A stretch of 56,539 nt of DNA from a virus (IMGVR_UViG_3300030098_005086:1-56539), one strand, 5' to 3'. Positions 1 through 14,432 are shown, counted from the stretch's first letter. Notes: a model not told the origin generated them from the sequence alone. Numbers and translations are program-made.

Positions 1-235
1 CTACGCAATGCTGCGAATTGGAACTTCCACCCAACGTATGATTCAGAGAAGGCGAACGGTATCCGGAGGTCACTCGAATGGGGCCCAACTCATTGCGTAG
101 AGGCTGTAAAATAGAATTTGCCAAAATTGTTAATTTATGAACACCGTCTTTAGTCGGAGTATTGTCAATTCCGAGACGCAGGGCAGTATTGGATTTAGTT
201 AGTTCTTGTAGGGTAAAGTTTTTGCTGATTCGCAT
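1..235 (-). CDS. Peptidase M15A-family (D-Ala-D-Ala carboxypeptidase-like) endolysin, runs off the window
   Basis: Manual translation MRISKNFTLQELTKSNTALRLGIDNTP...ILQPLRNELGPIRVTSGYRSPSLNHTLGGSSNSQHCV; the NF-L-E, SGYRS and GG-SQH motifs are typical of Peptidase_M15_3. Not in the ORF track. Confidence 0.88.
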   Translation of the reverse strand, partial: MRISKNFTLQELTKSNTALRLGIDNTPTKDGVHKLTILANSILQPLRNELGPIRVTSGYRSPSLNHTLGGSSNSQHCV

Positions 236-237
236 AA

Positions 238-600
238 TTACATAAATTTCTTTAATACTAATTCCTCTACTTTCTTTTTAGGGGCTTTAATACAAAGCTG
301 AAATGTCAAATCAGCATCATATCTTTCAACCACTTCTTTATTATAAAAGATTAAAATAGTAGGAACAGAAAGAATTTTATATGTGGAGGTTAAATTGGGA
401 CATGTTTCTATATTAACCATGTAAGACTTAATATCTTTAAATTCAGCTAAATCTACACAGTTATCTTTGTTCCATTCCGCATAAAACTCAATTAAAACAA
501 TATCATCGTTTAACTTCTCTTCAAATTCTTCCTCATTAATTACTTGCTGAGCTAAAGAACTAAAAGATAATAATAATAAAAATATTAAAATAGTTCTCAT
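238..600 (-). CDS. Exported thioredoxin-fold protein lacking CxxC
   Basis: Signal peptide MRTILIFLLLLSFSSLA; Trx pattern VLIEFYAEW and Y-I-SVPT-LIF; WNKDN where WCxxC is expected. Confidence 0.75.
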   Translation of the reverse strand: MRTILIFLLLLSFSSLAQQVINEEEFEEKLNDDIVLIEFYAEWNKDNCVDLAEFKDIKSYMVNIETCPNLTSTYKILSVPTILIFYNKEVVERYDADLTFQLCIKAPKKKVEELVLKKFM

Positions 601-887
601 TTTTTTTGAATTACCTGATACAGTCTCTCGTCCATTACATCTATCTTTTCTTCTATTGCATCTAGAGTTTCTTTATTGGATAAAACAGTCTGTCTTATCA
701 ATTCATTTTTCATATTGATTTCGTTGGCACTTGGGTAACCATCGAATTTTTCTACTTTCATTTCTAAGGCATTAACTTGCCCCACCAAATTATAATACGT
801 TCCTGCTACACTCATTATCATAACAGCAAATCCTATTATAAATTTTAAGTCAGTACTTATCTTGGTATTTTCTCCTATTTGTGCCAT
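597..887 (-). CDS. Single-pass membrane protein with coiled-coil C-terminus (possible lysis accessory)
   Basis: Hydrophobic FIIGFAVMIMSVAGTYY followed by heptad-like LDAIEEKIDVMDERLY; overlaps both neighbours. Confidence 0.6.
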   Translation of the reverse strand: MAQIGENTKISTDLKFIIGFAVMIMSVAGTYYNLVGQVNALEMKVEKFDGYPSANEINMKNELIRQTVLSNKETLDAIEEKIDVMDERLYQVIQKK

Positions 888-1438
888 TTTAATGTTCCGT
901 TTTGAATGTATACTCCACTAGGTTGTTTAACTTCTTGTCCATATAAATTATACATTAAATTAGAACCTTCAGATTCTTTTATAATCTCTCCGATTGAACT
1001 ATTGCAGTCAAGGCCGGTATCACAATCAATATACTGAAAAACTTCTTCATATTCTATTTGAATAATGGTGTCATATATATATTGAGTTTCATAAACATAT
1101 TCTATTTCTACTTCTACAATAGTATCTGTTTCATAAATATATTCTACCACCGGAACATCTATATAAACAGTATCACACTCTATTATTTCTAAAACACAAT
1201 CAGACAGTGAGGTTGGAACAGCTCCATTCTCATCACTTGCATCTACACAGTCCTCCCACCCATCGTTAATCCAAGAGTTTTGAACACACCCATTTGGAGA
1301 GTATTGCGTCCAATTAGCCTCATCGTCTCCACAATAAAACCCATTGGCTTCAGCACACGCTAAACATCCTAGGTTATAATCCTGTGAAAACCCTATCGTA
1401 GATAGGATAAAAAATAATAATAAAAGTATTTTTTTCAT
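875..1438 (-). CDS. Secreted Cys-rich protein with LDL-receptor class A-like motif and T9SS type-A-like C-terminal domain
   Basis: Signal peptide MKKILLLLFFILSTIGFSQ; CVQNSWINDGWEDCVDASDE; DTV/DTI stalk; ends MYNLYGQEVKQPSGVYIQNGTLKWHK. Confidence 0.7.
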   Translation of the reverse strand: MKKILLLLFFILSTIGFSQDYNLGCLACAEANGFYCGDDEANWTQYSPNGCVQNSWINDGWEDCVDASDENGAVPTSLSDCVLEIIECDTVYIDVPVVEYIYETDTIVEVEIEYVYETQYIYDTIIQIEYEEVFQYIDCDTGLDCNSSIGEIIKESEGSNLMYNLYGQEVKQPSGVYIQNGTLKWHK

Positions 1439-1439
1439 A

Positions 1440-2459
1440 TTAAAAGAATAAAAAATTAAACCCTACCTTTAATTCATACACCGGCTTCATCCAATATCTT
1501 TGGTGGGTTCCCTCTACAAACATTCCTAACTTTTTTGTAATACGAGAACCAAACACTAATCCGGCATCCCATTCTGCCCAATCATTATCCGTCTCTCCAT
1601 ATTGGAACGAATAATCATCAAGTCCATAATGCAAAGGTAGTAAATTATACCACGCATGAATCCATAGTTTAGAGGTCCATTTATAGTAGGACACCCCTAA
1701 AACAGCACTTATCTCGTTTTGTCGACCTAATTTTTCTAACTCTTGCTCATTATAAGTTGCTACAGCTTCTCCAAAATAATGTTTAAAAAACTCATCATTA
1801 GAAGTAGCAAGAAGCTCGTCATTAGACGACCAATGCCATTGGCCATTTACAAATTCTCTACTATAACCAAAATCTTCAGCAAAATCAATAAAACTACTTT
1901 CTCCCTGTATCCACAAATCCTCAATGGGAGTAATTCCGTAGACCGGGTGGTTGCGCATAACAATTCCTGCAGTAAAGTCCCACGGGCCTTTGGTTATTCT
2001 CCACCTATTGTCAAAAGAAATATATTTTAAATCTAAGCGCTCGTTGTCTTTGTATTGCGCTTTATGAACCGTTTTATTGCCGAGGTAACGTAGCCAAAAA
2101 TCTCCATTATTAAATGTTTCACCGCGATGGCGTAGAAAAGAATAATTAAAGAGATACTCCCAACCATTAGCATTCCCAATAGTAACGTTGTCTGATACAG
2201 TTCGCTCAGTACCGTAGTACCACGTCTTAACTTTATATTCATAATCAAATCTAGCTATTTTACGAATCCCTATGCTTAGGTGATAATCGTAAGGGTTAAT
2301 TGTTGTTACATCCTCATATCCTCTGTTGACAGCAATGTAATTCTCTCTTTCTACCATCGAAGACCCTAGAGACATAGATGTGTAAAAAGTAGAGTATTTA
2401 AAAAACTGACCAAACGATAAAAGAGGGATTAACAAACATGTTAAAAATAATGTTCTCAT
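1440..2459 (-). CDS. Predicted outer-membrane beta-barrel protein
   Basis: Signal peptide MRTLFLTCLLIPLLSFGQ; aromatic-rich amphipathic strands; C-terminus YELKVGFNFLFF ending in Phe, like a BAM signal. Confidence 0.7.
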   Translation of the reverse strand: MRTLFLTCLLIPLLSFGQFFKYSTFYTSMSLGSSMVERENYIAVNRGYEDVTTINPYDYHLSIGIRKIARFDYEYKVKTWYYGTERTVSDNVTIGNANGWEYLFNYSFLRHRGETFNNGDFWLRYLGNKTVHKAQYKDNERLDLKYISFDNRWRITKGPWDFTAGIVMRNHPVYGITPIEDLWIQGESSFIDFAEDFGYSREFVNGQWHWSSNDELLATSNDEFFKHYFGEAVATYNEQELEKLGRQNEISAVLGVSYYKWTSKLWIHAWYNLLPLHYGLDDYSFQYGETDNDWAEWDAGLVFGSRITKKLGMFVEGTHQRYWMKPVYELKVGFNFLFF

Positions 2460-2584
2460 CGTCCTTGACCTCTATATTGTTTTACGTAATTATTAGCTCC
2501 TTTAGTAAATGTCGTCTTGCTTTTCGCATGACGATTGTGTTTTTGCTTTTTGTTTGGAGTAAATTTCCATACTTTTTTTGCCAT
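2456..2584 (-). CDS. Small basic phage protein (42 aa, ends YRGQGR)
   Basis: Manual translation MAKKVWKFTPNKKQKHNRHAKSKTTFTKGANNYVKQYRGQGR; ATGA overlap with the barrel gene. Confidence 0.75.
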   Translation of the reverse strand: MAKKVWKFTPNKKQKHNRHAKSKTTFTKGANNYVKQYRGQGR

Positions 2585-2644
2585 CTTTTATAAAATATTT
2601 TATTTGATGAGGTATTCCAAAACTACTATGTGTTGTCCACTTTT

Positions 2645-3262
2645 TTACCATACCCCTAGATTCCATAATGTACCGTATGTACCGTGAATATAGCAGCCGT
2701 CCCGAGCTATTCTTCTTACTTGAGTGGGCCAAACAGGAGTGTCAATTAATTGTGGAGGAACATTAGTTGCGCAATTATCTAATGTATCTCCTCCCGCACT
2801 TACATAGGTGGCACATGCACTTTTATCTGCTACATTAGTATAAACCATACAAGGCTTGTTGTTTAGAGGAGCTCGATACAACCTATATGGGGTTCCTGTT
2901 GCAGCATACTCAATACACCATCCCGCAAGCACCAAAACTATATTGCTTGTTAGGACTTTTATCTCGGTTGCGCTAACAATCTCTACTACCCGGCCTGCTC
3001 CCGCCGTAGTTGATGTAGAGCCTACATTATAAACTATATCCCCTTGCTTAACATCTAGAGCCTCAAAATCTGCTGACCCATCTTTAAGACCCACCACACT
3101 TAAAGTTGCCCCACCATCATAAGCGGTAGTAGGAAGATTAACAGCGGTAGCTGTATTTGTTCCTTGATGATAGAAGTCTCCCGGAAAAGGAATATTTCCC
3201 ACATCAGAAGGTATTATGCGCAATATACGCGTTCCTTGTCCTAATAATTTTTGATAAGCCAT
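2645..3262 (-). CDS. Hypothetical (possibly structural) protein, paralog of 3282..3971
   Basis: Shares MAYxKLLGQGxR..IxPSD, SAGGD, PxQ(V/I)RRI and LG(V/I)W ends with its neighbour. Confidence 0.7.
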   Translation of the reverse strand: MAYQKLLGQGTRILRIIPSDVGNIPFPGDFYHQGTNTATAVNLPTTAYDGGATLSVVGLKDGSADFEALDVKQGDIVYNVGSTSTTAGAGRVVEIVSATEIKVLTSNIVLVLAGWCIEYAATGTPYRLYRAPLNNKPCMVYTNVADKSACATYVSAGGDTLDNCATNVPPQLIDTPVWPTQVRRIARDGCYIHGTYGTLWNLGVW

Positions 3263-3281
3263 GATTCTCTTTTTATATTAA

Positions 3282-3971
3282 TTACCATATTCCTAAATAA
3301 TACATTTGCCACCCCGTGTTACTACTTACGGTTGTAGCCACTCCGGTTTTGTCTACTGTGCTATTTAATATTCGTCGTATTTGCACAGGAAAACGGGAGC
3401 TTATAACCTGCATACCACCAGGAGACCCATAACAAGAAGGTAAGGTAACTCCTCCGGTCGGTATCATCTCAAGGCCATCTCCTCCCGCAGAAATAAAAGT
3501 AGTTTCGACGTTATTGATAGCAGCAGGTAATGTAACCATAGGAAAATCCTTAGGTCTTCTAAATACTTTAATGTCATAATCTACAGCTCCAGGGTCAAGA
3601 CCTAGGGCCGCAAATGCGGGTTCTATATCCACATAAGCTTGACGCTCGTTACCACCCCATTCGGGTAGGCGAACCACTCCTGCTCCCTGCAACGAAGACG
3701 CTCTAAAACCTGAGGCGGTGTCATAAAAATATATAATATCTCCTTTTTGGACACCTCCTCCTGTTACCTTCATATCTCTCCATGTGGGCTGACCACCCGC
3801 AAGTTCTACCACCCCTGAGGTTCCCGAAGCTACACAAGCATATCCCGGCTCTACGTAATTTTTGACTCTTTCCCACGTAATTTGGTCTGAAGGATTAGGC
3901 ACCTCACACCAATCCGAGGGGCAAATCCACATACACCGCATTCCTTGTCCTAATAGTTTTTCGTACGCCAT
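3282..3971 (-). CDS. Hypothetical (possibly structural) protein, paralog of 2645..3262
   Basis: Same shared motifs as 2645..3262. Confidence 0.7.
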   Translation of the reverse strand: MAYEKLLGQGMRCMWICPSDWCEVPNPSDQITWERVKNYVEPGYACVASGTSGVVELAGGQPTWRDMKVTGGGVQKGDIIYFYDTASGFRASSLQGAGVVRLPEWGGNERQAYVDIEPAFAALGLDPGAVDYDIKVFRRPKDFPMVTLPAAINNVETTFISAGGDGLEMIPTGGVTLPSCYGSPGGMQVISSRFPVQIRRILNSTVDKTGVATTVSSNTGWQMYYLGIW

Positions 3972-4216
3972 TATTTTATTTTTCTTATAACATTACCAAT
4001 TATAGGAGAAGAAACAACTCGCGTAGGTTTTTGTGGGGGTGGCACATTGGGAGACTGCATGCTTTTTTGATAAGGAAAGATGCGATTCAAAGTATCTCGT
4101 CTTTTATTGCATCCACAGTCTTTTCCTGTAGCTTTTGCCACTTTGTCCACCACACTCTTAACACCTGTGGCTTTAGTTATTTTCTCTATTGTATCTCCTA
4201 AACCGCGTGACTTCAT
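3971..4216 (-). CDS. Conserved phage protein (GLGDTIEK...DCGC type)
   Basis: MKSRGLGDTIEKITKATG...KDCGCNKRRDTLN; start moved to ATG 4216, which forms a TAATG overlap with the upstream ORF. Confidence 0.75.
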   Translation of the reverse strand: MKSRGLGDTIEKITKATGVKSVVDKVAKATGKDCGCNKRRDTLNRIFPYQKSMQSPNVPPPQKPTRVVSSPIIGNVIRKIK

Positions 4217-4383
4217 TAGCAATTACAATTTTTGTTAATACCTAAGTTGAATACAACCAACTTAAAACAGCGATTAGAAAAATCTGATTTTAACTCAAAT
4301 AAAGTTAATCCTCCAATTCTTAACTCAACTCTAATCTTATCCCATTGACGCGCATTTGACGCGAAGTAATTTGTAAATTTCAT
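4216..4383 (-). CDS. Hypothetical protein (55 aa)
   Basis: Manual translation MKFTNYFASNARQWDKIRVELRIGGLTLFELKSDF...NCNC; fills the gap and is coupled to the next gene. Confidence 0.65.
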   Translation of the reverse strand: MKFTNYFASNARQWDKIRVELRIGGLTLFELKSDFSNRCFKLVVFNLGINKNCNC

Positions 4384-4398
4384 TTTATTATTATTTTA

Positions 4399-4599
4399 TT
4401 ATTTAGTACTACAGCCAAAGTTTTTTGCATAGTTGGCCATTTTTACTACACTTTCAGAATACTTTTTAGTATTCTTCATTACCGCATCAGCAGCGCTACA
4501 CGCATCTTCAAATCCGTTTTGCTTTGCCCATTTAGTAAATTTTCCCTGATTTTTTTTCTTAATCTCAGGAAACTTTTTTGTTCTTCCTCTTGTTGCCAT
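4399..4599 (-). CDS. Small basic phage protein
   Basis: KKKNQGKFTKWAK...VKMANYAKNF; 1-nt overlap with the upstream gene. Confidence 0.7.
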   Translation of the reverse strand: MATRGRTKKFPEIKKKNQGKFTKWAKQNGFEDACSAADAVMKNTKKYSESVVKMANYAKNFGCSTK

Positions 4600-4874
4600 T
4601 ATGATTTTCTCATTACGCCTGTTCTATTACTACCCGTTTGGGTTTTAAAGGCATATTCTAATTTCTTTTTAACACTCTTTGGGTAATGCTTCTCATATTT
4701 CATAGAATGGTCCCCACCATATGCATGTCCATAATATTTTTTAGACATTGCTTTAGACTCATCGCGTCTAGCTTTAAAAGACTGCTTGTGCTTGCCTTTA
4801 TGTTTACTACCTAAAGCTTCGTCGAGCCTAGAGTTATATCCTTGTTTTGTGTCTTTGCGAATTTTAACTTTCAT
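4599..4874 (-). CDS. Basic phage protein
   Basis: QGYNSRLDEALG..KQSFKARRDESKAM; Lys/His rich. Confidence 0.7.
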   Translation of the reverse strand: MKVKIRKDTKQGYNSRLDEALGSKHKGKHKQSFKARRDESKAMSKKYYGHAYGGDHSMKYEKHYPKSVKKKLEYAFKTQTGSNRTGVMRKS

Positions 4875-4905
4875 GTTCTTTTTTTTTAATGATTGATATA
4901 TACTA

Positions 4906-5382
4906 TTAAAAAGCTAGACCTGCAGGACGCTTGTTGTTCCGTAATGTCCCCTGTCTTCTCTTCCTAGCTATAGAGTTCCTAACTTTTCTCCTCTTTGCTT
5001 GAGCGGGAGATAATGCTCTTGTTGTTCCTTTCTTCCTATCTATATAGACCGCTCCTATCGCTCCCATTGTTGGCCGTTTCTTCTGTGCTCCTCTTTTCTT
5101 TCTTTTTGCTGCGCTTGCAGCAACACCCCATAGTGATTTTCTCTTTTTAGGTCTACGTTTTCCGCCAACTGCGCTTGCAACAGCACTGAATAATCCTCCT
5201 TTTCCTCTTTTCTTCTTTGCTTGTGCGGTTTTAGCAGCGATTTCACTCACAGCCCCTTTTTTCTTTTCTAAGTCTCTTTTATAGTAGCGCTTAACTCCCG
5301 GTTTTGACTTTCGGCCTCCTTGCTTATTTCGGCCGGTAACTTTTCTAAAAGCACTTCTTAGTGCTCTTCCAAATCTTGACAT
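4906..5382 (-). CDS. Extremely Lys/Arg-rich low-complexity protein
   Basis: Alternating basic runs and short Ala-rich segments (LFSAVASAVG, LWGVAASAAK); AT-rich leader. Confidence 0.65.
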   Translation of the reverse strand: MSRFGRALRSAFRKVTGRNKQGGRKSKPGVKRYYKRDLEKKKGAVSEIAAKTAQAKKKRGKGGLFSAVASAVGGKRRPKKRKSLWGVAASAAKRKKRGAQKKRPTMGAIGAVYIDRKKGTTRALSPAQAKRRKVRNSIARKRRQGTLRNNKRPAGLAF

Positions 5383-5408
5383 AATACTGTTTCTTTATTA
5401 ATTAATGT

Positions 5409-5660
5409 TTACTTCTTTCTTTTAAAACGACTTAAAGGATTTTTAGTGTATTTTATTTTTTTAAGAGACCCCTTCTTCTCTTTTAATTTATCTCTTCCCC
5501 ACTTAGTTTTTACTACGTTCTTCTTTTTTATAACACCTGTCTTTCCTTTAGTGCCCTTCTTTCTAACCACTACGTCTTTTATCGTTGTCTTTCCCACTTT
5601 CTTTTTTGTAACAGTTCGAGTTCTCTTACGACCTTTATATGTTTTTGTTTTAGTTGGCAT
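5409..5660 (-). CDS. Lys/Thr-rich basic protein
   Basis: MPTKTKTYKGRKRTRTVTKKKV...; first gene after the promoter at 5701-5708. Confidence 0.65.
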   Translation of the reverse strand: MPTKTKTYKGRKRTRTVTKKKVGKTTIKDVVVRKKGTKGKTGVIKKKNVVKTKWGRDKLKEKKGSLKKIKYTKNPLSRFKRKK

Positions 5661-5689
5661 AATATATTTTTTAAAAATTATTTAATAAT

Positions 5690-5708
5690 TATCTTTGTAG
5701 CAAAGTTA
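5690..5708. promoter_or_regulatory. Pair of overlapping opposed Bacteroidota -7 promoter boxes (TAnnTTTG)
   Basis: TATCTTTG on + at 5690-5697 and TAACTTTG on - at 5701-5708, between divergent genes. Confidence 0.7.
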
Positions 5709-5723
5709 AGAAAAATTATTTTA

Positions 5724-6149
5724 ATGAAATTAAACTATTTAAAGTATTGGAGAGTAATAAGATATTTTATAAAAGCTAAATATAAACTCACCCAAGCGGA
5801 CCTAGATATACTCCTATTCTTATATGACGAAGAGTACTTCTCTAAAGACAAATTCAAAGAGTTCGATGAACTCCTGAGTTGGAATGTAAACAGATTTGAC
5901 CAACTTCTTAAAAATGGATGGATAGAAGTGTTTAGAAAATATGATGGGAAAAATAAAGCTATATATAAACTCTCTTATAAAAGCGTAAGACTAATTGTAT
6001 CTATATATAATAAACTCAGCGGGGAAGAAATTCCTACTAGCCCCTCCTCAAATCCTATGTTTGCACGTAATGTTTCATACACTGATAAGGTTTATAGAAA
6101 GATGATTAAAGAAATGAATAAGAAAATAAAAGAAGATAGATTTAACTAA
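5724..6149 (+). CDS. Winged-helix (MarR-like) DNA-binding protein
   Basis: LTQADLDILLFLY...FDQLLKNGWIEVF...YKLSYKS pattern. Confidence 0.6.
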   Translation: MKLNYLKYWRVIRYFIKAKYKLTQADLDILLFLYDEEYFSKDKFKEFDELLSWNVNRFDQLLKNGWIEVFRKYDGKNKAIYKLSYKSVRLIVSIYNKLSGEEIPTSPSSNPMFARNVSYTDKVYRKMIKEMNKKIKEDRFN

Positions 6150-6403
6150 ACTACTACTACAACATTTCGTTCTTGGATAATGGTATAGGCTTCATTTTCT
6201 ATCATCATAGTATGCGAGCCGTGTTTATCAAAATATAAGACATCACCATTTTTAATAGCATCTACCTCTGTGCCGGAATTAATTACTTCACCTTTTTTAT
6301 ATCTTAAGTCTTTAACGTCTTCAGAGGATAATAATAATCCCGAGTCGGTAGTAATCTGTTCTTCGATAGATTTAACTACTATATATTTACCTATTGCTTT
6401 CAT
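6146..6403 (-). CDS. groES: Co-chaperonin GroES
   Basis: MKAIGKYIVV..TDSGLLL..KGEVINSG..IKNGDVLYF..IIQERNV; adjacent to GroEL. Confidence 0.92.
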   Translation of the reverse strand: MKAIGKYIVVKSIEEQITTDSGLLLSSEDVKDLRYKKGEVINSGTEVDAIKNGDVLYFDKHGSHTMMIENEAYTIIQERNVVVVV

Positions 6404-8025
6404 TCTTCTCTTTTTTCATATGAGCGTGCCATTGTGATAATAGCGTTAGTACTAAGTAATGTTACTGCAACAGAAACAGCATTTTGTAAAGCATGTTTAG
6501 TCACCTTCATAGGGTCAATGACTCCTAACTTTAAAAGGTCTCCGTGTTTATTGTTTTTTACATCGTAACCATAACCGTCCTCCATAGCAGTATTATACTT
6601 CTTGGTTTCTTTAAGTCCTGCGTTTTTTAATATTTGTATAAGAGGAACCCTAATGGCTTTAGCTAAAATTGCGTTAGCAATTCGTTTTTCCTGATTTGTT
6701 TCCTTCTCACTTGTAGTTAGCAGTCCGTTTGAGGATATATTAAATAAAGCTAATCCTGACCCTGGCAATATCCCTTCTGCTTGAGCAGAACGCACCGCAC
6801 ACACTGCATCATCAACTCTATCAAATAATTCTTTTTGTTCTACGTCTGTATTGCCTCCCACGTGAATAACCCCTATTCCTCCTGTTAAAGAAGCAATACG
6901 AGACATAATAAATTCTCTGCTCATTTTAGTAGTAGCTATCTTATGAGCTCCCCATAACTCTTCAACACGAGTGTTAATCTCATCCATATTGTCTCTGTTA
7001 GACGAGAGTATGATTGTTGAGGTGCCTCCAACTATCACCTTAGAGGCTTGTCCTAAATCTTTAAAATCTATGATACTCAAGTCATCTCCCGTCTTTTCAG
7101 AGAAGTAACGTGCTCCTGTAGATAAAGCAATGTCACGCATAAGCTCATGTTGCTTGTACCCAAAGTTAGGTGGGTCTATAACACAAACCTTAATATTACG
7201 TTTCATGACATTAGCAGCTAAGGTATGTAGCACATTGGGACTACATGGAGCAATAATAAGTAGCGATTTACCGTCTTGAATAATTGGTTTAAGTATTTGT
7301 TCTATATTAAGAATATTGGTTACCTCAGCATCAGAAACAAAAATGTAGGGATTCTCTAATATACACTCATCTTTCTTTTGATTATTAACAAATAGGTTGT
7401 TTGCATAGCCTCGGTCTATTTTAATTCCTTCAGTAGACTCAATATATGTTTCACTAGTATCAGACTTTTCTACAGTAACAATACCGTTTTTTCCTACTTG
7501 ATTATATACATCAGCAATTAATCCCCCTATATAAGGGTCATTATTAGCCGATATAGTAGCTACACTTTTAAGTCTACTCTTAGTAACAGGCTTACTTTTC
7601 TTTTTTAAAGCACTTACAATATCTTTAGTAGAAGAAACTAATTCCCTTAATACTTCTGTTTGATTACAGTCAGGATAGTTGTCAAACTTGTGTAAAGCTT
7701 CTTTTATTAAAGCTTCGGTTAAAACAATAGCTGTAGTCGTTCCGTCTCCCGCTTGAGTGGCCGTCTTGTCGGCAGCCTGCTTCATCATAGTAACCGCAAG
7801 GTTTTCTACAGGGTCTATAAGACTCACTGACTTAGCCACAGTAACCCCGTCTTTGGTAACCGTAAGATGACTCGTAAATTCAGGAGATTCTATAAGAACA
7901 GTATTTCCACTAGGACCTAGGGTGCTTTTAACTGCGTTTGAAATCTTATTAATACCGTTTATTAGCTTTTGACGACCGTCTTTTCCAAAGACTAATTCTT
8001 TGGGAGTGTATCCTTGTTTGTTCAT
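6400..8025 (-). CDS. groEL: Chaperonin GroEL
   Basis: STLGPSG, TKDGVTVAK, AGDGTTTA, ATISAN, DRVDDA, GVIDP motifs; 541 aa. Confidence 0.97.
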   Translation of the reverse strand: MNKQGYTPKELVFGKDGRQKLINGINKISNAVKSTLGPSGNTVLIESPEFTSHLTVTKDGVTVAKSVSLIDPVENLAVTMMKQAADKTATQAGDGTTTAIVLTEALIKEALHKFDNYPDCNQTEVLRELVSSTKDIVSALKKKSKPVTKSRLKSVATISANNDPYIGGLIADVYNQVGKNGIVTVEKSDTSETYIESTEGIKIDRGYANNLFVNNQKKDECILENPYIFVSDAEVTNILNIEQILKPIIQDGKSLLIIAPCSPNVLHTLAANVMKRNIKVCVIDPPNFGYKQHELMRDIALSTGARYFSEKTGDDLSIIDFKDLGQASKVIVGGTSTIILSSNRDNMDEINTRVEELWGAHKIATTKMSREFIMSRIASLTGGIGVIHVGGNTDVEQKELFDRVDDAVCAVRSAQAEGILPGSGLALFNISSNGLLTTSEKETNQEKRIANAILAKAIRVPLIQILKNAGLKETKKYNTAMEDGYGYDVKNNKHGDLLKLGVIDPMKVTKHALQNAVSVAVTLLSTNAIITMARSYEKREE

Positions 8026-8050
8026 GTCTATTGAATTAAATTATATTATG

Positions 8051-8058
8051 CAAATATA
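8051..8058 (-). promoter_or_regulatory. TAnnTTTG promoter box for groEL-groES
   Basis: TATATTTG on the minus strand 25 nt upstream of the groEL ATG. Confidence 0.6.
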
Positions 8059-8090
8059 AACATATTTTCTTATACCACTAACTTTAGTTA

Positions 8091-8251
8091 TGTCAAAATT
8101 TTTTAACCCTATTTATATATATATTTTTACCTCCTATTATTTAAAATTATCTATGAGAATTTGAAGTATTTTTCGACATTTTCGACACTAGTTCTGATTA
8201 TCAGTAAGTTAGCTATCTAAAATCGACACTAAAATCGACACTAAAATGTCA
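8091..8251 (+). repeat. Iteron/origin-like element, copy A
   Basis: Inverted TGTCAAAA, AT-rich spacer, GACATTTTCGACACTA, CTGATTATCAG, then TAAAATCGACAC x2; colinear with 20452-20612. Confidence 0.75.
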
Positions 8252-8383
8252 ATTATTGACATTATCTTAATGATTTCTTAACATATACGTCATATTAGAG
8301 TATTATATTTACTATATGAAAATAGAAATCTCCAAATACCTTTACATTCTTATTATGATATTTATGTATATCTTTGCATTATA

Positions 8384-8554
8384 ATGCCTGTGAATAAAAA
8401 GATTATTAAAATATCTAAAGACCAATATGACAGCCTTGTCAAAGAGTATTCCTATATACTAGATTTATATATGTCAGACAATCAATATTACGTTATCGGA
8501 ACTATAGATGACCTTAAGTCAGCAGGAATAGATTTAGATTCCCCATATTATTAA
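8384..8554 (+). CDS. Small hypothetical protein (56 aa)
   Basis: Manual translation MPVNKKIIKISKDQYDSLVKEY...LDSPYY; TATCTTTG box at 8369-8376. Confidence 0.55.
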   Translation: MPVNKKIIKISKDQYDSLVKEYSYILDLYMSDNQYYVIGTIDDLKSAGIDLDSPYY

Positions 8555-8581
8555 AAAAGAAAAGGGAGCATATAGCTCCCT
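8553..8581 (-). terminator. Rho-independent terminator of the 10412-to-8611 unit
   Basis: AGGGAGC-atata-GCTCCCT hairpin followed by a U-rich tract on the minus strand. Confidence 0.7.
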
Positions 8582-8610
8582 AATCCAAATCAAACAAAGG
8601 GTGTGTTTTT

Positions 8611-9120
8611 TTAAATGCCACTAATGTTGCTCCAGGTAGCGCGTGCTTCATTTTTTCTTTGTAGTTCCTCGCCGTGATAAGGATTTGCATTATATCCTCT
8701 CATTGCATTTCCTCTATTTCGTCTCCTTTCATACATGTCCCAAGTAGTCCCAAACAATCCTCTTCTTCTTCCCCTAAGTCTATTACGAAACATTCCAAAA
8801 GGTCCTCCAAATCCTCCAAGTCTTGCCGCCCATCTTTCTTTTCTCGCGTCTGCTCTTGCTCTTGCCCTGTCATAGTGGGCACCTACAGCATCAGCTGTTC
8901 TCATTCTTCCTTTAGCCCCTTGAAATCTATTAGAGCCACTCGTTAAGCCTTGTTGTATGTTTTGACCTTCTCTGTTTCTTACAGGGAGAGTCGGTATTTG
9001 TTTCTCAGGTGGAGTTGTTACATTATTAGGCGTTGTAGGAGGATTGTATATAGGTCCTTGCCTAGGAGCTCTACCTTCATATATTAATGTGTTTTTCTGT
9101 TGTCTATTAGGTTTAGGCAT
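8611..9120 (-). CDS. Arg/Gly/Pro-rich disordered basic protein
   Basis: RARARADARKERW, LGGFGGPFGMF, RLRGRRRG. Confidence 0.65.
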   Translation of the reverse strand: MPKPNRQQKNTLIYEGRAPRQGPIYNPPTTPNNVTTPPEKQIPTLPVRNREGQNIQQGLTSGSNRFQGAKGRMRTADAVGAHYDRARARADARKERWAARLGGFGGPFGMFRNRLRGRRRGLFGTTWDMYERRRNRGNAMRGYNANPYHGEELQRKNEARATWSNISGI

Positions 9121-9122
9121 AA

Positions 9123-9347
9123 TTATTTCTTTATTTTGTTACCTGTAAAAAATTGTAAATCTACTGTAGCCATTACTCTAGCTTCTTTTTGTTGTTCTGC
9201 TAGCTCTATGCCTTCAGCGATATCTCTTATTGTTCGAGAGCTTTTTAATTCTCTCCTTAGTCTAGCGGCTTTAGATATTCCTGTTTCTGACTCAGGTCTA
9301 TTATTTACCATCTGACCATCTTTCATTGTTAATCCATCAAATCCCAT
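9123..9347 (-). CDS. Hypothetical phage protein
   Basis: GLTMKDGQMVNNRP..TGI..IAEGIELAE; packed in the operon. Confidence 0.7.
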   Translation of the reverse strand: MGFDGLTMKDGQMVNNRPESETGISKAARLRRELKSSRTIRDIAEGIELAEQQKEARVMATVDLQFFTGNKIKK

Positions 9348-9372
9348 GTTTTCTTTTTTTTAATAGTTATAC

Positions 9373-9639
9373 TTATATTTTTCTTCCTGCTCTGCTTTTA
9401 TTTTTAGCACGTTTTTTTAATTGCTTCATAGGCGCTTCTTTGTCCGCCGTAGCGATTAGTTTTCCCACATCATAAGCTAGGAGACCCCAACCTACTCCGG
9501 GAATAAATCTACTACCAACTTTAGAAGCTCCCCTCGTTATTAGTTTTCTTGCCGTAGCGTACTTTAATGCCTTGCTTGCTCCTTTGCCTATCCCTTTGAT
9601 AGCGGCCTTTTGTTTCATTTTTTCACCAAACTTTGACAT
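9373..9639 (-). CDS. Basic protein with a hydrophobic IPGVGWGLLAYD segment
   Basis: Lys/Gly/Ala rich with a central amphipathic segment. Confidence 0.65.
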   Translation of the reverse strand: MSKFGEKMKQKAAIKGIGKGASKALKYATARKLITRGASKVGSRFIPGVGWGLLAYDVGKLIATADKEAPMKQLKKRAKNKSRAGRKI

Positions 9640-9640
9640 A

Positions 9641-9847
9641 TTATTTCTTTGTTTTCATTTTTCTTAATCTTGCCGTAATAGGTACATATGACAATTCTCT
9701 CTTTTTTTCCAAATAGGATTGTCTTTTTACACGCTTACCCATTGGTTTAGCTCTTGGACCCGTTCTTCCTCTTAATCCCTTGCTTACTCCTCCTTTTCTA
9801 GCCCTTTGCTTCATTGATGCTTTTACACCGGTTTTTGATTTTCTCAT
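9641..9847 (-). CDS. Small Lys/Arg-rich protein
   Basis: MRKSKTGVKASMKQRARKGG...; 1-nt gaps to both neighbours. Confidence 0.65.
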   Translation of the reverse strand: MRKSKTGVKASMKQRARKGGVSKGLRGRTGPRAKPMGKRVKRQSYLEKKRELSYVPITARLRKMKTKK

Positions 9848-9848
9848 A

Positions 9849-10412
9849 TTACTTCTTTTTCTTTTTAGACTTCGTAGTTGTTGATTTCTTGGTTGCTGCT
9901 TTCCTAGCTGCCCAATACTTTGCTGTTGACGCTTTTACTGTATGGGGCTTAGCATACTTAGGCATAACCTTCCCCGTTTTAAGATTTATTATCTTACCTG
10001 TCTTAGCGTCTCTACCGTATTTAGCAGAACTACTTGTCTGTGCCTTATCTGTCTTTGCTTTACTTCTCTTCTTCTTCTTTTTCTTATCCGCATTTCTCCA
10101 CGGGTCATCCTTTTTAGCGTCGTAGTTAGGATTAGCTTTCGCTACCGCTTTATTATATGCTTTACGAGCATCCTTAATAGCCTTATCATATCTAGATTTC
10201 GCCGTGCTCTTTTTCTTAGACGTTTTTGTTTTTCTTCGCTTAGTAGCAGTCAGCCTTTCTGCACTCTTTAATGTTTTACGTGCAGCGCTCTTTTTTTTCT
10301 TATATGTTGAAGTGGTAATCTTTCCACTCTTTAATCTACGCGCAGCTCTATTTAGTTTTCTTGTCGCAACTTTCTTTTTAAGCTTAGAGCGTAGCTTTTT
10401 TAATATAGGCAT
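9849..10412 (-). CDS. Histone-H1-like Lys/Ala/Thr/Ser-rich protein (187 aa)
   Basis: Start reassigned to ATG 10412 (MPILKK) because a TATCTTTG box lies at 10437-10444; poly-Lys runs. Confidence 0.7.
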   Translation of the reverse strand: MPILKKLRSKLKKKVATRKLNRAARRLKSGKITTSTYKKKKSAARKTLKSAERLTATKRRKTKTSKKKSTAKSRYDKAIKDARKAYNKAVAKANPNYDAKKDDPWRNADKKKKKKRSKAKTDKAQTSSSAKYGRDAKTGKIINLKTGKVMPKYAKPHTVKASTAKYWAARKAATKKSTTTKSKKKKK

Positions 10413-10436
10413 TTTTAAACGGTTTAAGTTATTTAG

Positions 10437-10444
10437 CAAAGATA
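10437..10444 (-). promoter_or_regulatory. TAnnTTTG promoter box for the basic-protein unit
   Basis: CAAAGATA on + equals TATCTTTG on -. Confidence 0.65.
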
Positions 10445-10613
10445 CAAAAATATATGAGATGTATAGAGTGTTTGGGTTACATGCTCAATTAAACGAAATG
10501 TATCATAAAAAAAAACTGATATTTTTTTTGGGGGTGGGGGTTGATTTTGTTTTGTGATGTGTCAATTTTTTGGCGTTTTGTCTTGAGGTGGTACGCCCTG
10601 CTCCCTGCTCCGC

Positions 10614-13340: not shown

Positions 13341-14432
13341 ATGTGTATTATAATTGTAAAACAAAAGGGAAAGAAAGTAAGCCCTCAAGTTTTAAAAACC
13401 TCAAGTAAAATAAATCCGCACAATTTAGGTGTGGTATGGTTAGATACATTTGAAGTGTCTTATCATAAATCTAAAGAGTGGAAAGTGTTAAATACTGACC
13501 GCCCTTATATTGCTCACTTTAGATATGCAACAATCGGACAAGTGAACAAAGCAAACACCCACCCCTTTGAGTGTGGCAATAACAAGAACGAGTTGCTAAT
13601 GATGAACGGAACAATCCGCGGAAAAGGAAATATCCACGAGTGCGACACTAAAGTTCTAGCCAAAGAGTTAGGCGGTGTATCGCGCCACGTATGGAAAAGC
13701 GAGTTAGAGAAGTATGATTGTCGTTTTGTTTCTATTAATAAAAAGCATAGAACGTTCCAAATATATAATAAAGAGTTGTGGACACAAAAAGAGGGGGTGT
13801 GGTACTCGAAAGACAACGTGCTACAAGATAATCTTATTGCCGTATATGGTACGTTAAAAAAAGGATATTCAAATTACCACCGATATCTAAACAAATCTAA
13901 ATATATAGGAAGTGGAAACACTACGGACAAGTACCCGTTGATAATAGAGGGATTGCCTTATATGGTAAACCAAAAAGGGAAAGGACACAATGTTAATGTT
14001 GATGTCTTTAAAATTTCCAATCCCACCCTTGAACGTGTGGATATGTTGGAAGGACACCCGCAATGGTACAAGCGAGTACAAGTTCCCGTTACATTAAAGA
14101 GCGGGAAGGTTTTAAAGTGTTGGATATATTTCAACCCCAAAAAGATAGGGGCAAACACAACCCTACACAAAACGTATTCACAAAGCACATCAGTATATGG
14201 TAGAATTAAATCCTACACCCCTAAAATGTTTGATTGGTCAAGCATTACCCCTATTGATGAAATAGAGATAAATAGAGATGATGAGTTGTTGCGATTCGAT
14301 GAGTCGTTTAGTGACACCCCGTATTGTCCCGATTGCTTAAATGATTTAGAGTTCGATAGCTTTAATAGTTATCATTGTTATGGGTGTGGTCAATGGTTTA
14401 GTGAAACAGAAGTATTAACTAATAATTTTTAA
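13341..14432 (+). CDS. Class II glutamine amidotransferase fused to gamma-glutamylcyclotransferase (AIG2-like) and a C-terminal Zn ribbon
   Basis: N-terminal MCIII, HFRYATIG, HPF, MNG; then VYGTLKKG, D-LEGHP-WYKR; ends CPDC...CYGC. Confidence 0.88.
   Translation: MCIIIVKQKGKKVSPQVLKTSSKINPHNLGVVWLDTFEVSYHKSKEWKVLNTDRPYIAHFRYATIGQVNKANTHPFECGNNKNELLMMNGTIRGKGNIHECDTKVLAKELGGVSRHVWKSELEKYDCRFVSINKKHRTFQIYNKELWTQKEGVWYSKDNVLQDNLIAVYGTLKKGYSNYHRYLNKSKYIGSGNTTDKYPLIIEGLPYMVNQKGKGHNVNVDVFKISNPTLERVDMLEGHPQWYKRVQVPVTLKSGKVLKCWIYFNPKKIGANTTLHKTYSQSTSVYGRIKSYTPKMFDWSSITPIDEIEINRDDELLRFDESFSDTPYCPDCLNDLEFDSFNSYHCYGCGQWFSETEVLTNNF

Follow-up and report, generated by a model that had tools for sequence, protein, structure and literature searches.

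What function is served by a run of predicted envelope proteins that a phage encodes directly beside its endolysin? This question is raised by the first 2,584 nucleotides of the window, by which we mean the whole viral contig analyzed here (IMGVR_UViG_3300030098_005086; 56,539 nucleotides), and it touches on the route of Bacteroidota phages through the outer membrane, which is largely a gap in knowledge. At this end the window reaches the lysis region in the genome of an uncultured marine Flavobacteriia podophage, about 6% of that genome being absent from it. An ORF check retrieved all six genes that a first-pass annotation had described here as having overlapping or near-adjacent ends. They are all located on the minus strand within positions 2..2584 (Table 1), and the junctions from bas42 to the M15 endolysin gene comprise, in this order, a 4-nt overlap, a 1-nt gap, a 13-nt overlap, a 4-nt overlap and a 2-nt gap. 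The same DNA was recovered from public metagenome runs (marine and sponge) that are not marked as its source. Contigs of run X7 show 0 to 1 differences over their long pieces, with as many as 5 in two short ones, and for run X9 the difference is about 1-2%; no RNA run was among those listed for the region. Since contigs from X9, X12 and X7 extend beyond window position 1, the truncation of the M15 gene is due to the assembly, and the gene itself is not broken.

Table 1. Genes of the lysis-region end of the window and their predicted segments.
Feature	Position	Strand	Description
bas42	2456..2584	(-)	42 aa, very basic, pI 11.3; overlaps the BAR start by 4 nt
BAR	1440..2459	(-)	339 aa, secreted; predicted 12-stranded outer-membrane β-barrel
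BAR signal peptide (predicted)	2409..2459	(-)	about residues 1-17
BAR insertion	1722..1946	(-)	residues 172-246
CYS	875..1438	(-)	187 aa, secreted, acidic, Cys-rich; mature pI 4.05
CYS signal peptide (predicted)	1385..1438	(-)	
CYS head	1175..1381	(-)	residues 20-88; LDL-A-like, Cys-rich
CYS stalk	1025..1174	(-)	residues 89-138; acidic β-repeats
CYS C-terminal part	878..1024	(-)	residues 139-187; CDTGLxC segment, helix, short CTD-like tail
TMcc	597..887	(-)	96 aa, single-pass membrane protein
TMcc hydrophobic segment	777..845	(-)	about residues 15-37
TRX	238..600	(-)	120 aa, exported thioredoxin fold without redox cysteines
TRX WNKDN motif	460..474	(-)	residues 43-47
M15 endolysin, N-terminal 78 residues	2..235	(-)	L-alanyl-D-glutamate type; 3′ part lost at the contig end

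The three signal peptides, those of BAR, CYS and TRX, were called by eye and from hydropathy. They are backed by the family alignments, in which a Gln at the predicted cleavage site is invariant in CYS and TRX and nearly invariant in BAR, as this fits the Q-rule given for Bacteroidetes in PMC5837995, i.e., a Gln at the signal-peptide cleavage site. For BAR, the N-terminus is furthermore hydrophobic and weakly conserved (0.46, vs. 0.8 in the mature part), with a near-invariant Gln18 at the expected position of cleavage.

Which of the six genes belong together was addressed by co-occurrence in ocean viral contigs, where the module was tallied in 101 BAR-selected, 153 TRX-selected and 46 diverged loci, and further in 375 protein clusters. 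In 78 of 80 BAR-selected viral loci the next gene downstream of BAR is that of CYS, and the two loci without it end less than 100 nt past BAR. Among the TRX-selected loci, for which the best 80 of 153 were used, TMcc was found in 79/80, in each case directly upstream of TRX, CYS in 74/80 and BAR in 70/80, with all ten BAR misses being truncated loci without upstream sequence. The 46 diverged loci fall into two branches; after 10 loci without a called full BAR ORF and four truncated ones had been set aside, TRX was located within 7 kb of BAR in 32/32 loci, all of which have the complete BAR ORF and no less than 900 nt of sequence beyond it. The short or missing BAR ORFs of these branches are artefacts of ATG-only greedy gene calling, and stop-codon recoding in diverged BAR was dropped as an idea, the copy in locus L216 reading through intact. 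As the gene arrangement recurs in many viral contigs, it is far beyond chance, and BAR, CYS, TMcc and TRX constitute a conserved core of four envelope proteins. In relatives the wider unit includes a holin, whose place is just past the contig end, and in many of them also a small protein with two transmembrane (TM) segments.

The co-occurrence in related phages that the first-pass annotation had expected of the whole cluster is accordingly wide for five of the genes, but not for the basic 42-mer, which tblastn recovered in only 10/80 loci, all of them close relatives. bas42 is a neighbor of the conserved unit and does not belong to it. It is a coding gene, judging from the concentration of substitutions on the third codon positions of its frame (147, vs. 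70 and 59 at the other two); a 54-aa ORF overlapping it (2502..2666) was rejected as non-coding by its codon-position pattern.

The position of the core is that of a lysis cassette. In the clade of the window the gene order is BAR, CYS, TMcc, TRX, M15, f4, the latter being a holin family (phrog_3427; E 7.9e-30 for the copy of locus L018 and 9.2e-7 for that of L002). The window endolysin matches Peptidase_M15_3 (E 8e-13, 48.9 bits, cut-off 23.2, profile positions 1-67 of 108) and the endolysin family phrog_894 (E 1.3e-21), and full-length M15 homologs of 159-165 aa, followed by f4, are found in loci L002-L014 (58.3 bits against Peptidase_M15_3 for the L002 homolog). Many other loci have an endolysin candidate, either f53 (phrog_33083, E 1.9e-15) or f11, directly upstream of BAR, and a diverged branch, P0004-like, shows the order BAR, TMcc, TRX, tailed cargo, M15, holin. 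The module also holds two holin-like small membrane proteins, f5 and f42 (phrog_9987, E 5.4e-4). A PHROG search and a hydropathy scan of ORFs of at least 45 aa revealed neither an Rz/Rz1-like pair nor a lipoprotein with a C-terminal TM segment in the window; spanin families yielded no Pfam match and no PHROG match at E ≤ 0.1, and no lipobox is present in BAR or CYS.

The earlier proposal that the 339-aa protein is a membrane barrel was borne out by modeling. The AF2 model of BAR, built with 34 homologs, contains 12 long strands (pLDDT 74.1, pTM 0.69) and two further low-confidence stretches at 33-53 and 72-95, and a conserved insertion of about 75 residues is placed between strands 7 and 8. 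Polar and hydrophobic faces alternate in most strands, and the C-terminal end is aromatic (FNFLFF), reading ...LFF or ...LIF in 80/80 homologs. Foldseek returned 62 PDB matches at E ≤ 0.001, those listed being outer-membrane barrels, and VIA-align ranked Tsx first (Z 14.3; rmsd 3.9 over 190 aligned residues), ahead of KdgM (Z 12.4), NanC (Z 12.3) and autotransporter barrels, the EstA barrel scoring Z 12.2, with the 12-stranded enzymes LpxR and OMPLA at Z 10.4 and 9.8. By prediction, BAR is a closed outer-membrane barrel with amphipathic strands and an aromatic C-terminus. A kinship of this barrel to PorP/SprF, as had also been suggested, did not hold: PF11751 gave no match at E ≤ 1 for BAR or for ten diverged members, and hhalign of the BAR family against the five PorP/SprF proteins of the Flavobacteriales MAG G001, a candidate host, resulted in a probability of 2.1%, concerning the signal peptide only. 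PorV is absent among the BAR fold matches listed by Foldseek and VIA-align, and the model has 12 confident strands plus the two low-confidence stretches, the PorV/FadL-type fold having 14 strands. No Pfam or NCBIfam family matched BAR, and for neither BAR nor TMcc was a family of named function found in Pfam, NCBIfam or PHROG. The nearest named clusters in the Atlas, among them DUF6850 and an autotransporter cluster, shared fewer than 170 features at a score of 0.93, which is at chance level.

For BAR, 101 relatives with identities of 61-92% were found in viruses, and the protein occurs almost exclusively in phages. When BAR and CYS were searched by tblastn in 50,697 deposited phage records, neither had a match; a pattern scan of genome contigs based on the BAR alignment gave 124 pattern matches with none confirmed, and no viral locus was found for P0023-like barrels. 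A single cellular copy in a non-phage context was detected, in 1/17 genomes of its family, and BAR is present in 2/301 genomes of that order, one of the two copies being on a phage-like contig. Given that its top-ranking fold matches comprise small specific channels (Tsx, KdgM, NanC) as well as 12-stranded enzymes (LpxR, OMPLA), BAR might be a solute channel or an outer-membrane enzyme that alters host physiology apart from lysis or display, for which the family-wide conserved charged residues on polar strand faces and the cellular copy could also be cited. Nevertheless, we regard this as very improbable, as it leaves the fixed partnership with three envelope proteins and lysis genes unexplained, the cellular occurrence is sporadic, and no catalytic residues were identified; the sole pair examined by hand, Ser251/His268, was dropped, its residues lying at opposite ends of adjacent strands of the model.

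In TMcc, a hydropathy scan places the hydrophobic segment ahead of a charged, probably helical C-terminal part. In diverged homologs the TM segment is preceded by an additional soluble domain at the N-terminus, and this points to an N-in, C-out topology. TMcc matches phrog_20984, a family without assigned function, the window copy with E 8.8e-4 and the L018 copy with E 6.3e-7. For the downstream genes, the thioredoxin fold and the M15 peptidase named in the first-pass annotation are both above profile cut-off, TRX matching PF00085 with E 6.3e-9 (36.2 bits, cut-off 23.5) and TIGR01068 with E 2.2e-9; a diverged copy from locus L179 reaches 34.7 bits against PF00085. Where WCGPC is expected, TRX reads WNKDN, and the cis-Pro loop is retained. 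Across 17/17 aligned homologs WNxxN is invariant and the cis-Pro-Thr is kept, the invariant residues being Q18, W43, N44, N47, P80, T81 and F119. Judged by its sequence, TRX is a thioredoxin fold without the CxxC redox site. Its tblastn search against the same 50,697 phage records returned one weak match only (E 4e-3), and the identity of TMcc and of TRX across relatives is only 30-40%.

In five loci the BAR-CYS and TMcc-TRX pairs, both present, are 7-8 kb apart and on opposite strands, and the TMcc-TRX junction is always tight. This might imply that two functions travel together, namely lysis timing by TMcc-TRX, as a periplasm-facing holin partner or antiholin-like pair, and an unrelated accessory pair of BAR and cargo. 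The extra cytoplasmic domain of diverged TMcc proteins and an H-NOX sensor gene (PF07700, E 2.3e-45) just upstream in one locus hint at signal input, which would suit a timing role, as would the presence of f5 and f42 within the module. However, both pairs occur together in every locus with enough sequence, and BAR directly adjoins TMcc-TRX in the gene order of the diverged branches, so that we consider such a separation of functions improbable.

In the alignment of the fourth protein, CYS, Q19 and nine Cys are invariant, while the stalk ranges from 0 to about 170 residues among relatives and the total protein from 148 to 310 aa; in the AF2 model pLDDT is about 90 for the head, below 50 for the stalk and about 72 for the tail. 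Pfam Ldl_recept_a (PF00057) matches weakly (E 0.0089, 16.7 bits, below the cut-off of 24.1). The D(G/S)WxDCxDxxDE motif and the Cys pattern of the head are conserved or invariant, and LA modules make up nearly all of the top Foldseek rows, although none of these has an E below 0.6; one of them is 1ajj (rmsd 2.2 over 42 columns, 36% identity).

The T9SS-like tail previously ascribed to this Cys-rich protein agrees with the published short-CTD pattern. As set out in PMC11969387, short T9SS CTDs of Prevotella intermedia comprise 40-51 aa with motifs B, D and E and a predicted three-stranded sheet, motif B being Tyr..Gly followed by a basic residue, motif D GxY-Ile and motif E basic, with 1-6 residues between B and D. 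Going by its residues, the CYS tail corresponds to this motif definition and forms the extreme C-terminus of a protein with a predicted signal peptide. A comparison by eye gave the same motif order and spacing, with the difference that the host lineage here is marine Flavobacteriia and not Prevotella. T9SS-dependent secretion and tail cleavage are putative for CYS. The T9SS CTD profiles PF18962 and TIGR04183 did not match the window CYS at E ≤ 1, and two Bacteroidales proteins with a CYS-like tail had no T9SS CTD profile match at E ≤ 0.01. A search with a tail profile showed that such a tail terminates three unrelated secreted proteins in Bacteroidales MAGs and gave weak C-terminal matches to 4kca (E 0.12) and 7jvi (E 0.57); a match inside the yeast RNA-binding protein Hsh49 (E 0.014) was taken as chance. 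A search of a set of 5.8 billion proteins for longer proteins bearing the window CYS tail found none. In L097, a diverged phage-like contig, a 994-aa cargo with a canonical Por_Secre_tail (E 3.2e-13, 50.2 bits vs. a cut-off of 27) takes the place of CYS beside BAR. A cellular gene of G001 encodes a CYS-like stalk and tail with no adjoining barrel, and the five PorP/SprF genes present there indicate that this genome has T9SS parts. Overall, it is the cargo head that varies by lineage, with conservation of the tail and of the three partners. A complex prediction for BAR and CYS scored 0.00 in two runs performed without controls and weighs neither way.

Taken by themselves, these features could mean that on the infected cell a phage protein exported by the T9SS, namely CYS or one of its analogs, is anchored or escorted by BAR. 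The variable head may then mask a receptor or bind a target outside, TMcc and TRX may aid export or folding, and the purpose may be superinfection exclusion, sparing progeny from loss on debris, or adhesion. Such a surface display is in line with the position and motif spacing of the CYS tail, its counterparts on the three unrelated Bacteroidales proteins, the canonical cargo adjoining BAR in L097, heads that differ among lineages beside a conserved tail and partners, a stalk of varying length, as in surface spacers, and the G001 protein with the same stalk and tail in a genome with five PorP/SprF genes. Precedents of phage envelope proteins and phage T9SS cargo are also in print: 'Cryophage' is described as encoding T9SS cargo (PMC7468147), and according to a preprint Lom blocks LamB and huge phages encode many barrels (10.64898/2026.10.24.761521). 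Still, we consider display, although the main rival of the reading preferred below, possible but on the whole unlikely, because the strict endolysin/holin linkage in several gene orders is unexpected for exclusion genes, BAR does not show the arms-race diversification of exposed proteins (mean column identity of the family 71%) and the window CYS tail reaches no T9SS HMM. In addition, type A cargo in known T9SS needs, to our knowledge, no dedicated barrel, and BAR is not PorP/SprF by sequence.

The first-pass annotation had offered four purposes, namely superinfection exclusion, adhesion, lysis timing and non-spanin outer-membrane disruption, with no preference for any. The reading that we prefer, tentatively and without calling it probable, is that BAR, TMcc, TRX and the cargo form a late envelope machine in the place of spanins, which breaches or releases the outer membrane after the wall has been cut. 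The analysis itself shows which genes are present, how they are predicted to fold, that they co-occur and that they lie in the lysis cassette; the mode of action outlined next is inferred. The four envelope proteins would be made together with endolysin and holin and would act late. Sec would export BAR and BAM would insert it as the outer-membrane anchor, TMcc would span the inner membrane, its helical part reaching into the periplasm, and the redox-dead TRX would be a periplasmic adaptor or holdase between the two. The CTD-tailed cargo, here CYS, would reach the surface with or through BAR and the host T9SS and act there as a lineage-specific partner, plug or trigger. The machine may thus rely on the T9SS, BAM and Sec of the host, and its four proteins may be localized and contact each other in this way, with a T9SS-dependent cargo and a lytic effect.

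Several observations count for this spanin-replacing reading, namely the location of the module beside endolysin and holin, a co-occurrence that goes beyond a shared operon, the fact that no spanin was recognized in the window, the predicted TMcc topology, as expected of an i-spanin, together with the 4-nt overlap with the TRX gene, and BAR being the sole predicted outer-membrane component. As far as the respective accounts go, few recognizable spanins are reported for flavobacterial phages (PMC8776804) and only unimolecular ones for Bacteroidetes phages (PMC12596118). Other observations count against it. TRX is not an o-spanin, as its signal peptide contains no lipobox Cys in the window and in several relatives (a Cys is present in some others). 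Spanins are normally very variable, and the 61-92% identity of BAR, with 30-40% for TMcc and TRX, is unlike them. The surface-secretion signal of the cargo, its variable stalk and its barrel-less cellular likeness look like surface display and not like periplasmic bridging, and a spanin-type fusion needs no surface cargo. Furthermore, the roughly 6% of the genome missing from the window could encode a conventional spanin.

Hundreds of ocean viral contigs contain the module, so that its role, whatever it is, matters for the turnover of abundant marine Flavobacteriia. We think it doubtful that it amounts to a new class of breaching machine of Bacteroidota phages, in which a barrel anchor and a dead-thioredoxin link are coupled by the cargo to the T9SS pore or the surface; if true, this class would provide the missing final lysis step for a large and abundant group of marine phages. 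A lysis device of this kind would solve the problem in a new way, with a barrel and a secretion-system cargo as its parts, whereas a display device would mean that phages routinely dress the host surface via the T9SS shortly before lysis. Either reading offers four concrete proteins for testing.

Compared with known systems, the module shares with lambda Lom, the barrels of huge phages and the cargo of 'Cryophage' that phage-coded proteins of the host envelope use host export. The latter are single genes, with no fixed lysis-cassette set of four proteins reported in the passages of these sources that describe them, and in contrast to huge phages the genomes bearing BAR measure only 28-89 kb. 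In SprB/SprF a T9SS cargo is paired with an adjacent barrel. Similar to this PorP-type arrangement, the barrel gene of the module adjoins a gene for a cargo with signal peptide and T9SS-type tail, and the host belongs to the Bacteroidota; BAR, however, has neither a PF11751 match nor PorP/SprF profile similarity, and the tails of the module are type-A-like, short or canonical, and not type B. From two-component spanins such as lambda Rz/Rz1 the module differs in that its secreted partner TRX is a thioredoxin fold without lipobox, and in that it has an integral 12-stranded barrel and a fourth, T9SS-tailed protein, with a role that is likewise inferred. In common with these spanins, its genes lie in the lysis cassette by endolysin and holin, and it has an inner-membrane protein with one N-terminal TM segment, a helical periplasmic part (probable in TMcc) and a gene overlap with the next secreted protein; like them, it would supply the outer-membrane step that is otherwise missing in this phage.

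All six ORFs that the first-pass annotation had placed at the start of the window were recovered, with ends that overlap or almost touch. The M15 peptidase and the exported thioredoxin fold (TRX) scored above the curated Pfam cut-offs, the LDL-A match of the secreted Cys-rich protein (CYS) fell below the Pfam cut-off, and neither the 339-aa barrel candidate (BAR) nor the 96-aa membrane protein (TMcc) matched any family of known function in Pfam, NCBIfam or PHROG. The M15 gene runs past the end of the window. Since contigs of other public runs extend beyond position 1 and M15 homologues in relatives are full-length (159-165 aa), the gene is interrupted by the assembly. The codon-position pattern marks the basic 42-mer as coding; the 42-mer is present in just 10 of 80 loci and is therefore a neighbour of the module, not a member of the unit as had been assumed.

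Coordinates of features in the window and in compared loci
Feature	Sequence	Position	Strand	Details
Block terminating in the six-gene cluster	window	1..10412	-	
M15 endolysin gene	window	2..235	-	cut by contig end
TRX	window	238..600	-	120 aa
TMcc	window	597..887	-	96 aa, single-pass
CYS	window	875..1438	-	187 aa
BAR	window	1440..2459	-	339 aa
Basic 42-mer	window	2456..2584	-	42 aa
First paralogue	window	2645..3262	-	205 aa
Second paralogue	window	3282..3971	-	229 aa
Small very basic proteins in series	window	3971..5660	-	83, 55, 66, 91, 158, 83 aa
GroEL-type chaperonin	window	6400..8025	-	541 aa; phrog_5725, E 7.2e-132
Protein with gamma-glutamyl cyclotransferase-like part	window	13341..14432	+	363 aa; phrog_2520, E 9.7e-20
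Replication block: primase/helicase, helicase, exonuclease	window		+	
Very large structural-block ORF	window	26939..33526	-	2195 aa
Very large structural-block ORF	window	40765..46545	-	1926 aa
Terminase (cut), 810-aa portal, scaffold, major capsid, very large tail-region proteins	window		-	from far end
H-NOX protein	L179	9413-9961	+	PF07700, E 2.3e-45
N-terminally anchored protein	L178 (MW202828.1)	4371-4994		207 aa
CYS-like cellular gene	L082 (G001)	3023-4159		378 aa, secreted
BAR homologue	L098 (G060:C35)	9379-10593		404 aa
BAR fragment	G060:C25	16678-16941		two stops

The AlphaFold2 model of BAR, based on 34 homologues (pLDDT 74.1, pTM 0.69), contains twelve long strands, with a conserved insertion of ~75 residues separating strands 7 and 8 and two stretches (residues 33-53 and 72-95) that combine low model confidence with high conservation. 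A structural search against representatives returned 12-stranded outer-membrane barrels at the top, led by Tsx (Z 14.3, rmsd 3.9, 190 aligned) and followed by KdgM (12.4), NanC (12.3) and EstA (12.2), then by NalP, LpxR, FapF and OMPLA. In agreement with this, Foldseek yielded 62 matches at E <= 0.001, so that the protein does model as the barrel proposed earlier. Hydrophobic and polar faces alternate in most strands, and the last residue is aromatic in 80/80 homologues. That BAR serves as a channel or an enzyme is considered very improbable. An assignment to PorP/SprF was ruled out by profile.

In a set of 1.84 billion proteins BAR has 215 related representatives (E <= 0.001), and in one of 5.8 billion it has 375 clusters, with contigs of up to 89 kb among the 120 listed; the Atlas clusters nearest to BAR are viral in 30 of 30 cases. 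Deposited phage genomes yielded no match. Two of 301 sampled Flavobacteriales genomes contain BAR, one on a phage-like contig and the other in a cellular-looking context together with a degraded fragment. Judged by this distribution, BAR is essentially a phage family. The cellular copy, a 404-aa homologue in one Flavobacteriales MAG, was found in a single one of the 17 genomes that represent its family and is absent from the 16 others. By eye, its neighbours look like housekeeping genes, resembling those for ribose-phosphate pyrophosphokinase, ribosomal protein L25 and peptidyl-tRNA hydrolase, and the second piece in the same MAG is a fragment with two stops.

The genes had also been expected to co-occur in related phages, and they were indeed found together. 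Relatives of BAR were present on 101 viral contigs. In the best 80 of these, tblastn located CYS directly downstream of BAR in 78, and in the two misses (L039 and L047) the contig stops less than 100 nt past BAR. Clustering of ORFs from these 80 loci and the window placed TMcc in 65/81 and TRX in 67/81. The fuller module consists of BAR, CYS, either a small 2-TM protein or the 60-aa f42, TMcc, TRX, an endolysin and a holin assigned by PHROG (phrog_3427, E 7.9e-30 and 9.2e-7); f42 is weakly holin-like, and a further ORF family, f53, is endolysin-like (phrog_33083, E 1.9e-15). When loci were selected by TRX instead (best 80 of 153 found), TMcc was present in 79, CYS in 74 and BAR in 70, and in all ten loci lacking BAR the upstream sequence is too short to hold it. 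Five TRX-selected loci carry both the BAR-cargo pair and the TMcc-TRX pair, on opposite strands and 7-8 kb apart. TMcc and TRX come directly after BAR in two diverged branches of the BAR family, with 31 and 15 loci. In the diverged P0004-like branch, TRX is followed by a secreted protein of ~170-196 aa with another head and a short-CTD-like tail, then by M15 and a holin. Wherever a diverged-branch locus has a complete BAR ORF followed by 900 nt or more of sequence, TRX lies within 7 kb of BAR (32/32). All these observations show that BAR, a CYS-type cargo, TMcc and TRX form a fixed partnership with an endolysin and a holin, which is kept in deeply diverged branches and in several gene orders. 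A reading in which functions are split is regarded as quite unlikely. The closest deposited relative, MW202828, contains none of the four module genes and carries upstream of M15 a 150-aa 4-TM protein followed by a 207-aa N-terminally anchored protein, whose Asp-Thr-rich repeats recall the CYS stalk.

An alignment of 34 CYS homologues (72 distinct sequences were seen) divides the protein into five parts: a signal peptide followed at once by a Gln that never varies; a head whose Cys pattern and acidic D(G/S)WxDCxDxxDE motif are those of LDL-A modules; a stalk of 0 to ~170 residues, in which hydrophobic residues alternate with acidic or Thr residues; a CDTGLPC element with a short helix; and a conserved end, ~30 residues long, that reads YNLxGQxIRKPxGIYIxNGKIKY. 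The model of the head is confident (pLDDT about 90), and the PDB folds closest to it, without significance, are LA modules. In the tail, motif order and spacing agree with the 'short' CTDs of Prevotella intermedia, which were partly verified by cleavage-site mapping (PMC11969387), but no T9SS profile of Pfam or NCBIfam matched. A type B tail was rejected, as there was no Pfam match of any kind. A profile of 67 tails picked up the CYS tail motif, weakly (E 0.12 and 0.57), in two proteins of solved structure, glycan-active or beta-helix, in which it likewise forms the extreme C-terminus; it also matched three signal-peptide proteins with unrelated bodies from Bacteroidales MAGs. Furthermore, a cellular gene of the 1.4-Mb Flavobacteriales MAG G001, a genome with five PorP/SprF genes above cut-off, encodes a protein that shares the acidic stalk, the CxTxLPC element and the tail and differs in its head; by eye, the genes around it resemble those for MBOAT, DksA and phosphorylase. 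In L097, a diverged phage-like contig, the neighbour of BAR is a secreted protein of 994 aa that carries a canonical Por_Secre_tail (E 3.2e-13). These three independent observations strengthen the reading as a T9SS tail, and the G001 protein hints at small-genome Flavobacteriales as possible hosts, or as donors of the stalk and tail part. The main rival explanation is a unit that would display the head of the cargo at the surface of the cell. The tail for secretion, the stalk of varying length and the look-alike in a host genome speak for it; the link of the module to genes for lysis and the degree to which BAR is conserved speak against it, and it is rated as rather unlikely.

We tentatively prefer a late envelope machine acting in place of spanins. 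BAR would be the anchor in the outer membrane and TMcc the one in the inner membrane, with a periplasmic face; a redox-dead periplasmic TRX would connect the two, and the T9SS-tailed cargo with its lineage-specific head would be the surface-side partner. Neither TMcc nor TRX matched a spanin family in PHROG, and a hydropathy scan of all ORFs of at least 45 aa in the window revealed none resembling a unimolecular spanin. According to the same type of scan, TMcc has a single hydrophobic segment close to its N-terminus; the additional soluble domain that diverged copies carry ahead of this segment speaks for an N-in, C-out orientation. The 17 aligned TRX homologues retain the thioredoxin fold and cis-Pro loop, have WNxxN at the CxxC position in 17/17 and share a signal peptide with an invariant Gln immediately after it; judging from this alignment, TRX cannot be a redox enzyme. 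A signal-peptide Cys occurs in some TRX copies and is missing from the one in the window, so that lipidation is not a conserved feature; TRX of the window was rejected as a lipoprotein for the same missing Cys.

In the diverged relative L179, a phage H-NOX (haem-NO-binding) protein is encoded between BAR and TMcc, and the extra N-terminal soluble domain of TMcc copies from this branch weakly matches DUF4388 (E 0.014-0.031). Both may represent a sensory input to the module.

The window, which is an entire IMG/VR viral contig of 56,539 bases, is classed as linear, with a CheckV completeness of 94%. Its 805-aa primase/helicase-like protein shares 76% identity with the counterpart in the uncultured freshwater podovirus MW202828 and, over the first 300 residues, 41% with Flavobacterium phages of the 'elemo' group; on these identities, the host is probably a member of the Flavobacteriia. 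The paralogue pair directly upstream of the module shares the N-terminus MAYxKLLGQG, has no family match and is found in 10/81 loci. Several of the small basic proteins next to it are kept in the ten closest loci, and the basic 42-mer resembles one more of these. The chaperonin, which is encoded upstream of the module at a distance of a few kb, belongs to a family present in 9/81 loci, and the cyclotransferase-like protein lies in the early region.

Taken together, the observation made in the first-pass annotation is confirmed, and part of its interpretation is supported. A real, widespread and phage-specific module is present that has no characterised counterpart; the function given to it is an unproven proposal. 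A full-text literature search found no description of the four-protein set; supplementary tables, which may list the barrel family, were outside its reach. Barrels encoded by phages are described for huge phages (preprint 10.64898/2026.10.24.761521), a phage-encoded cargo of the T9SS for a single phage from cryoconite (PMC7468147), and signal peptides that follow the Q-rule for phages of Porphyromonas (PMC10367356).
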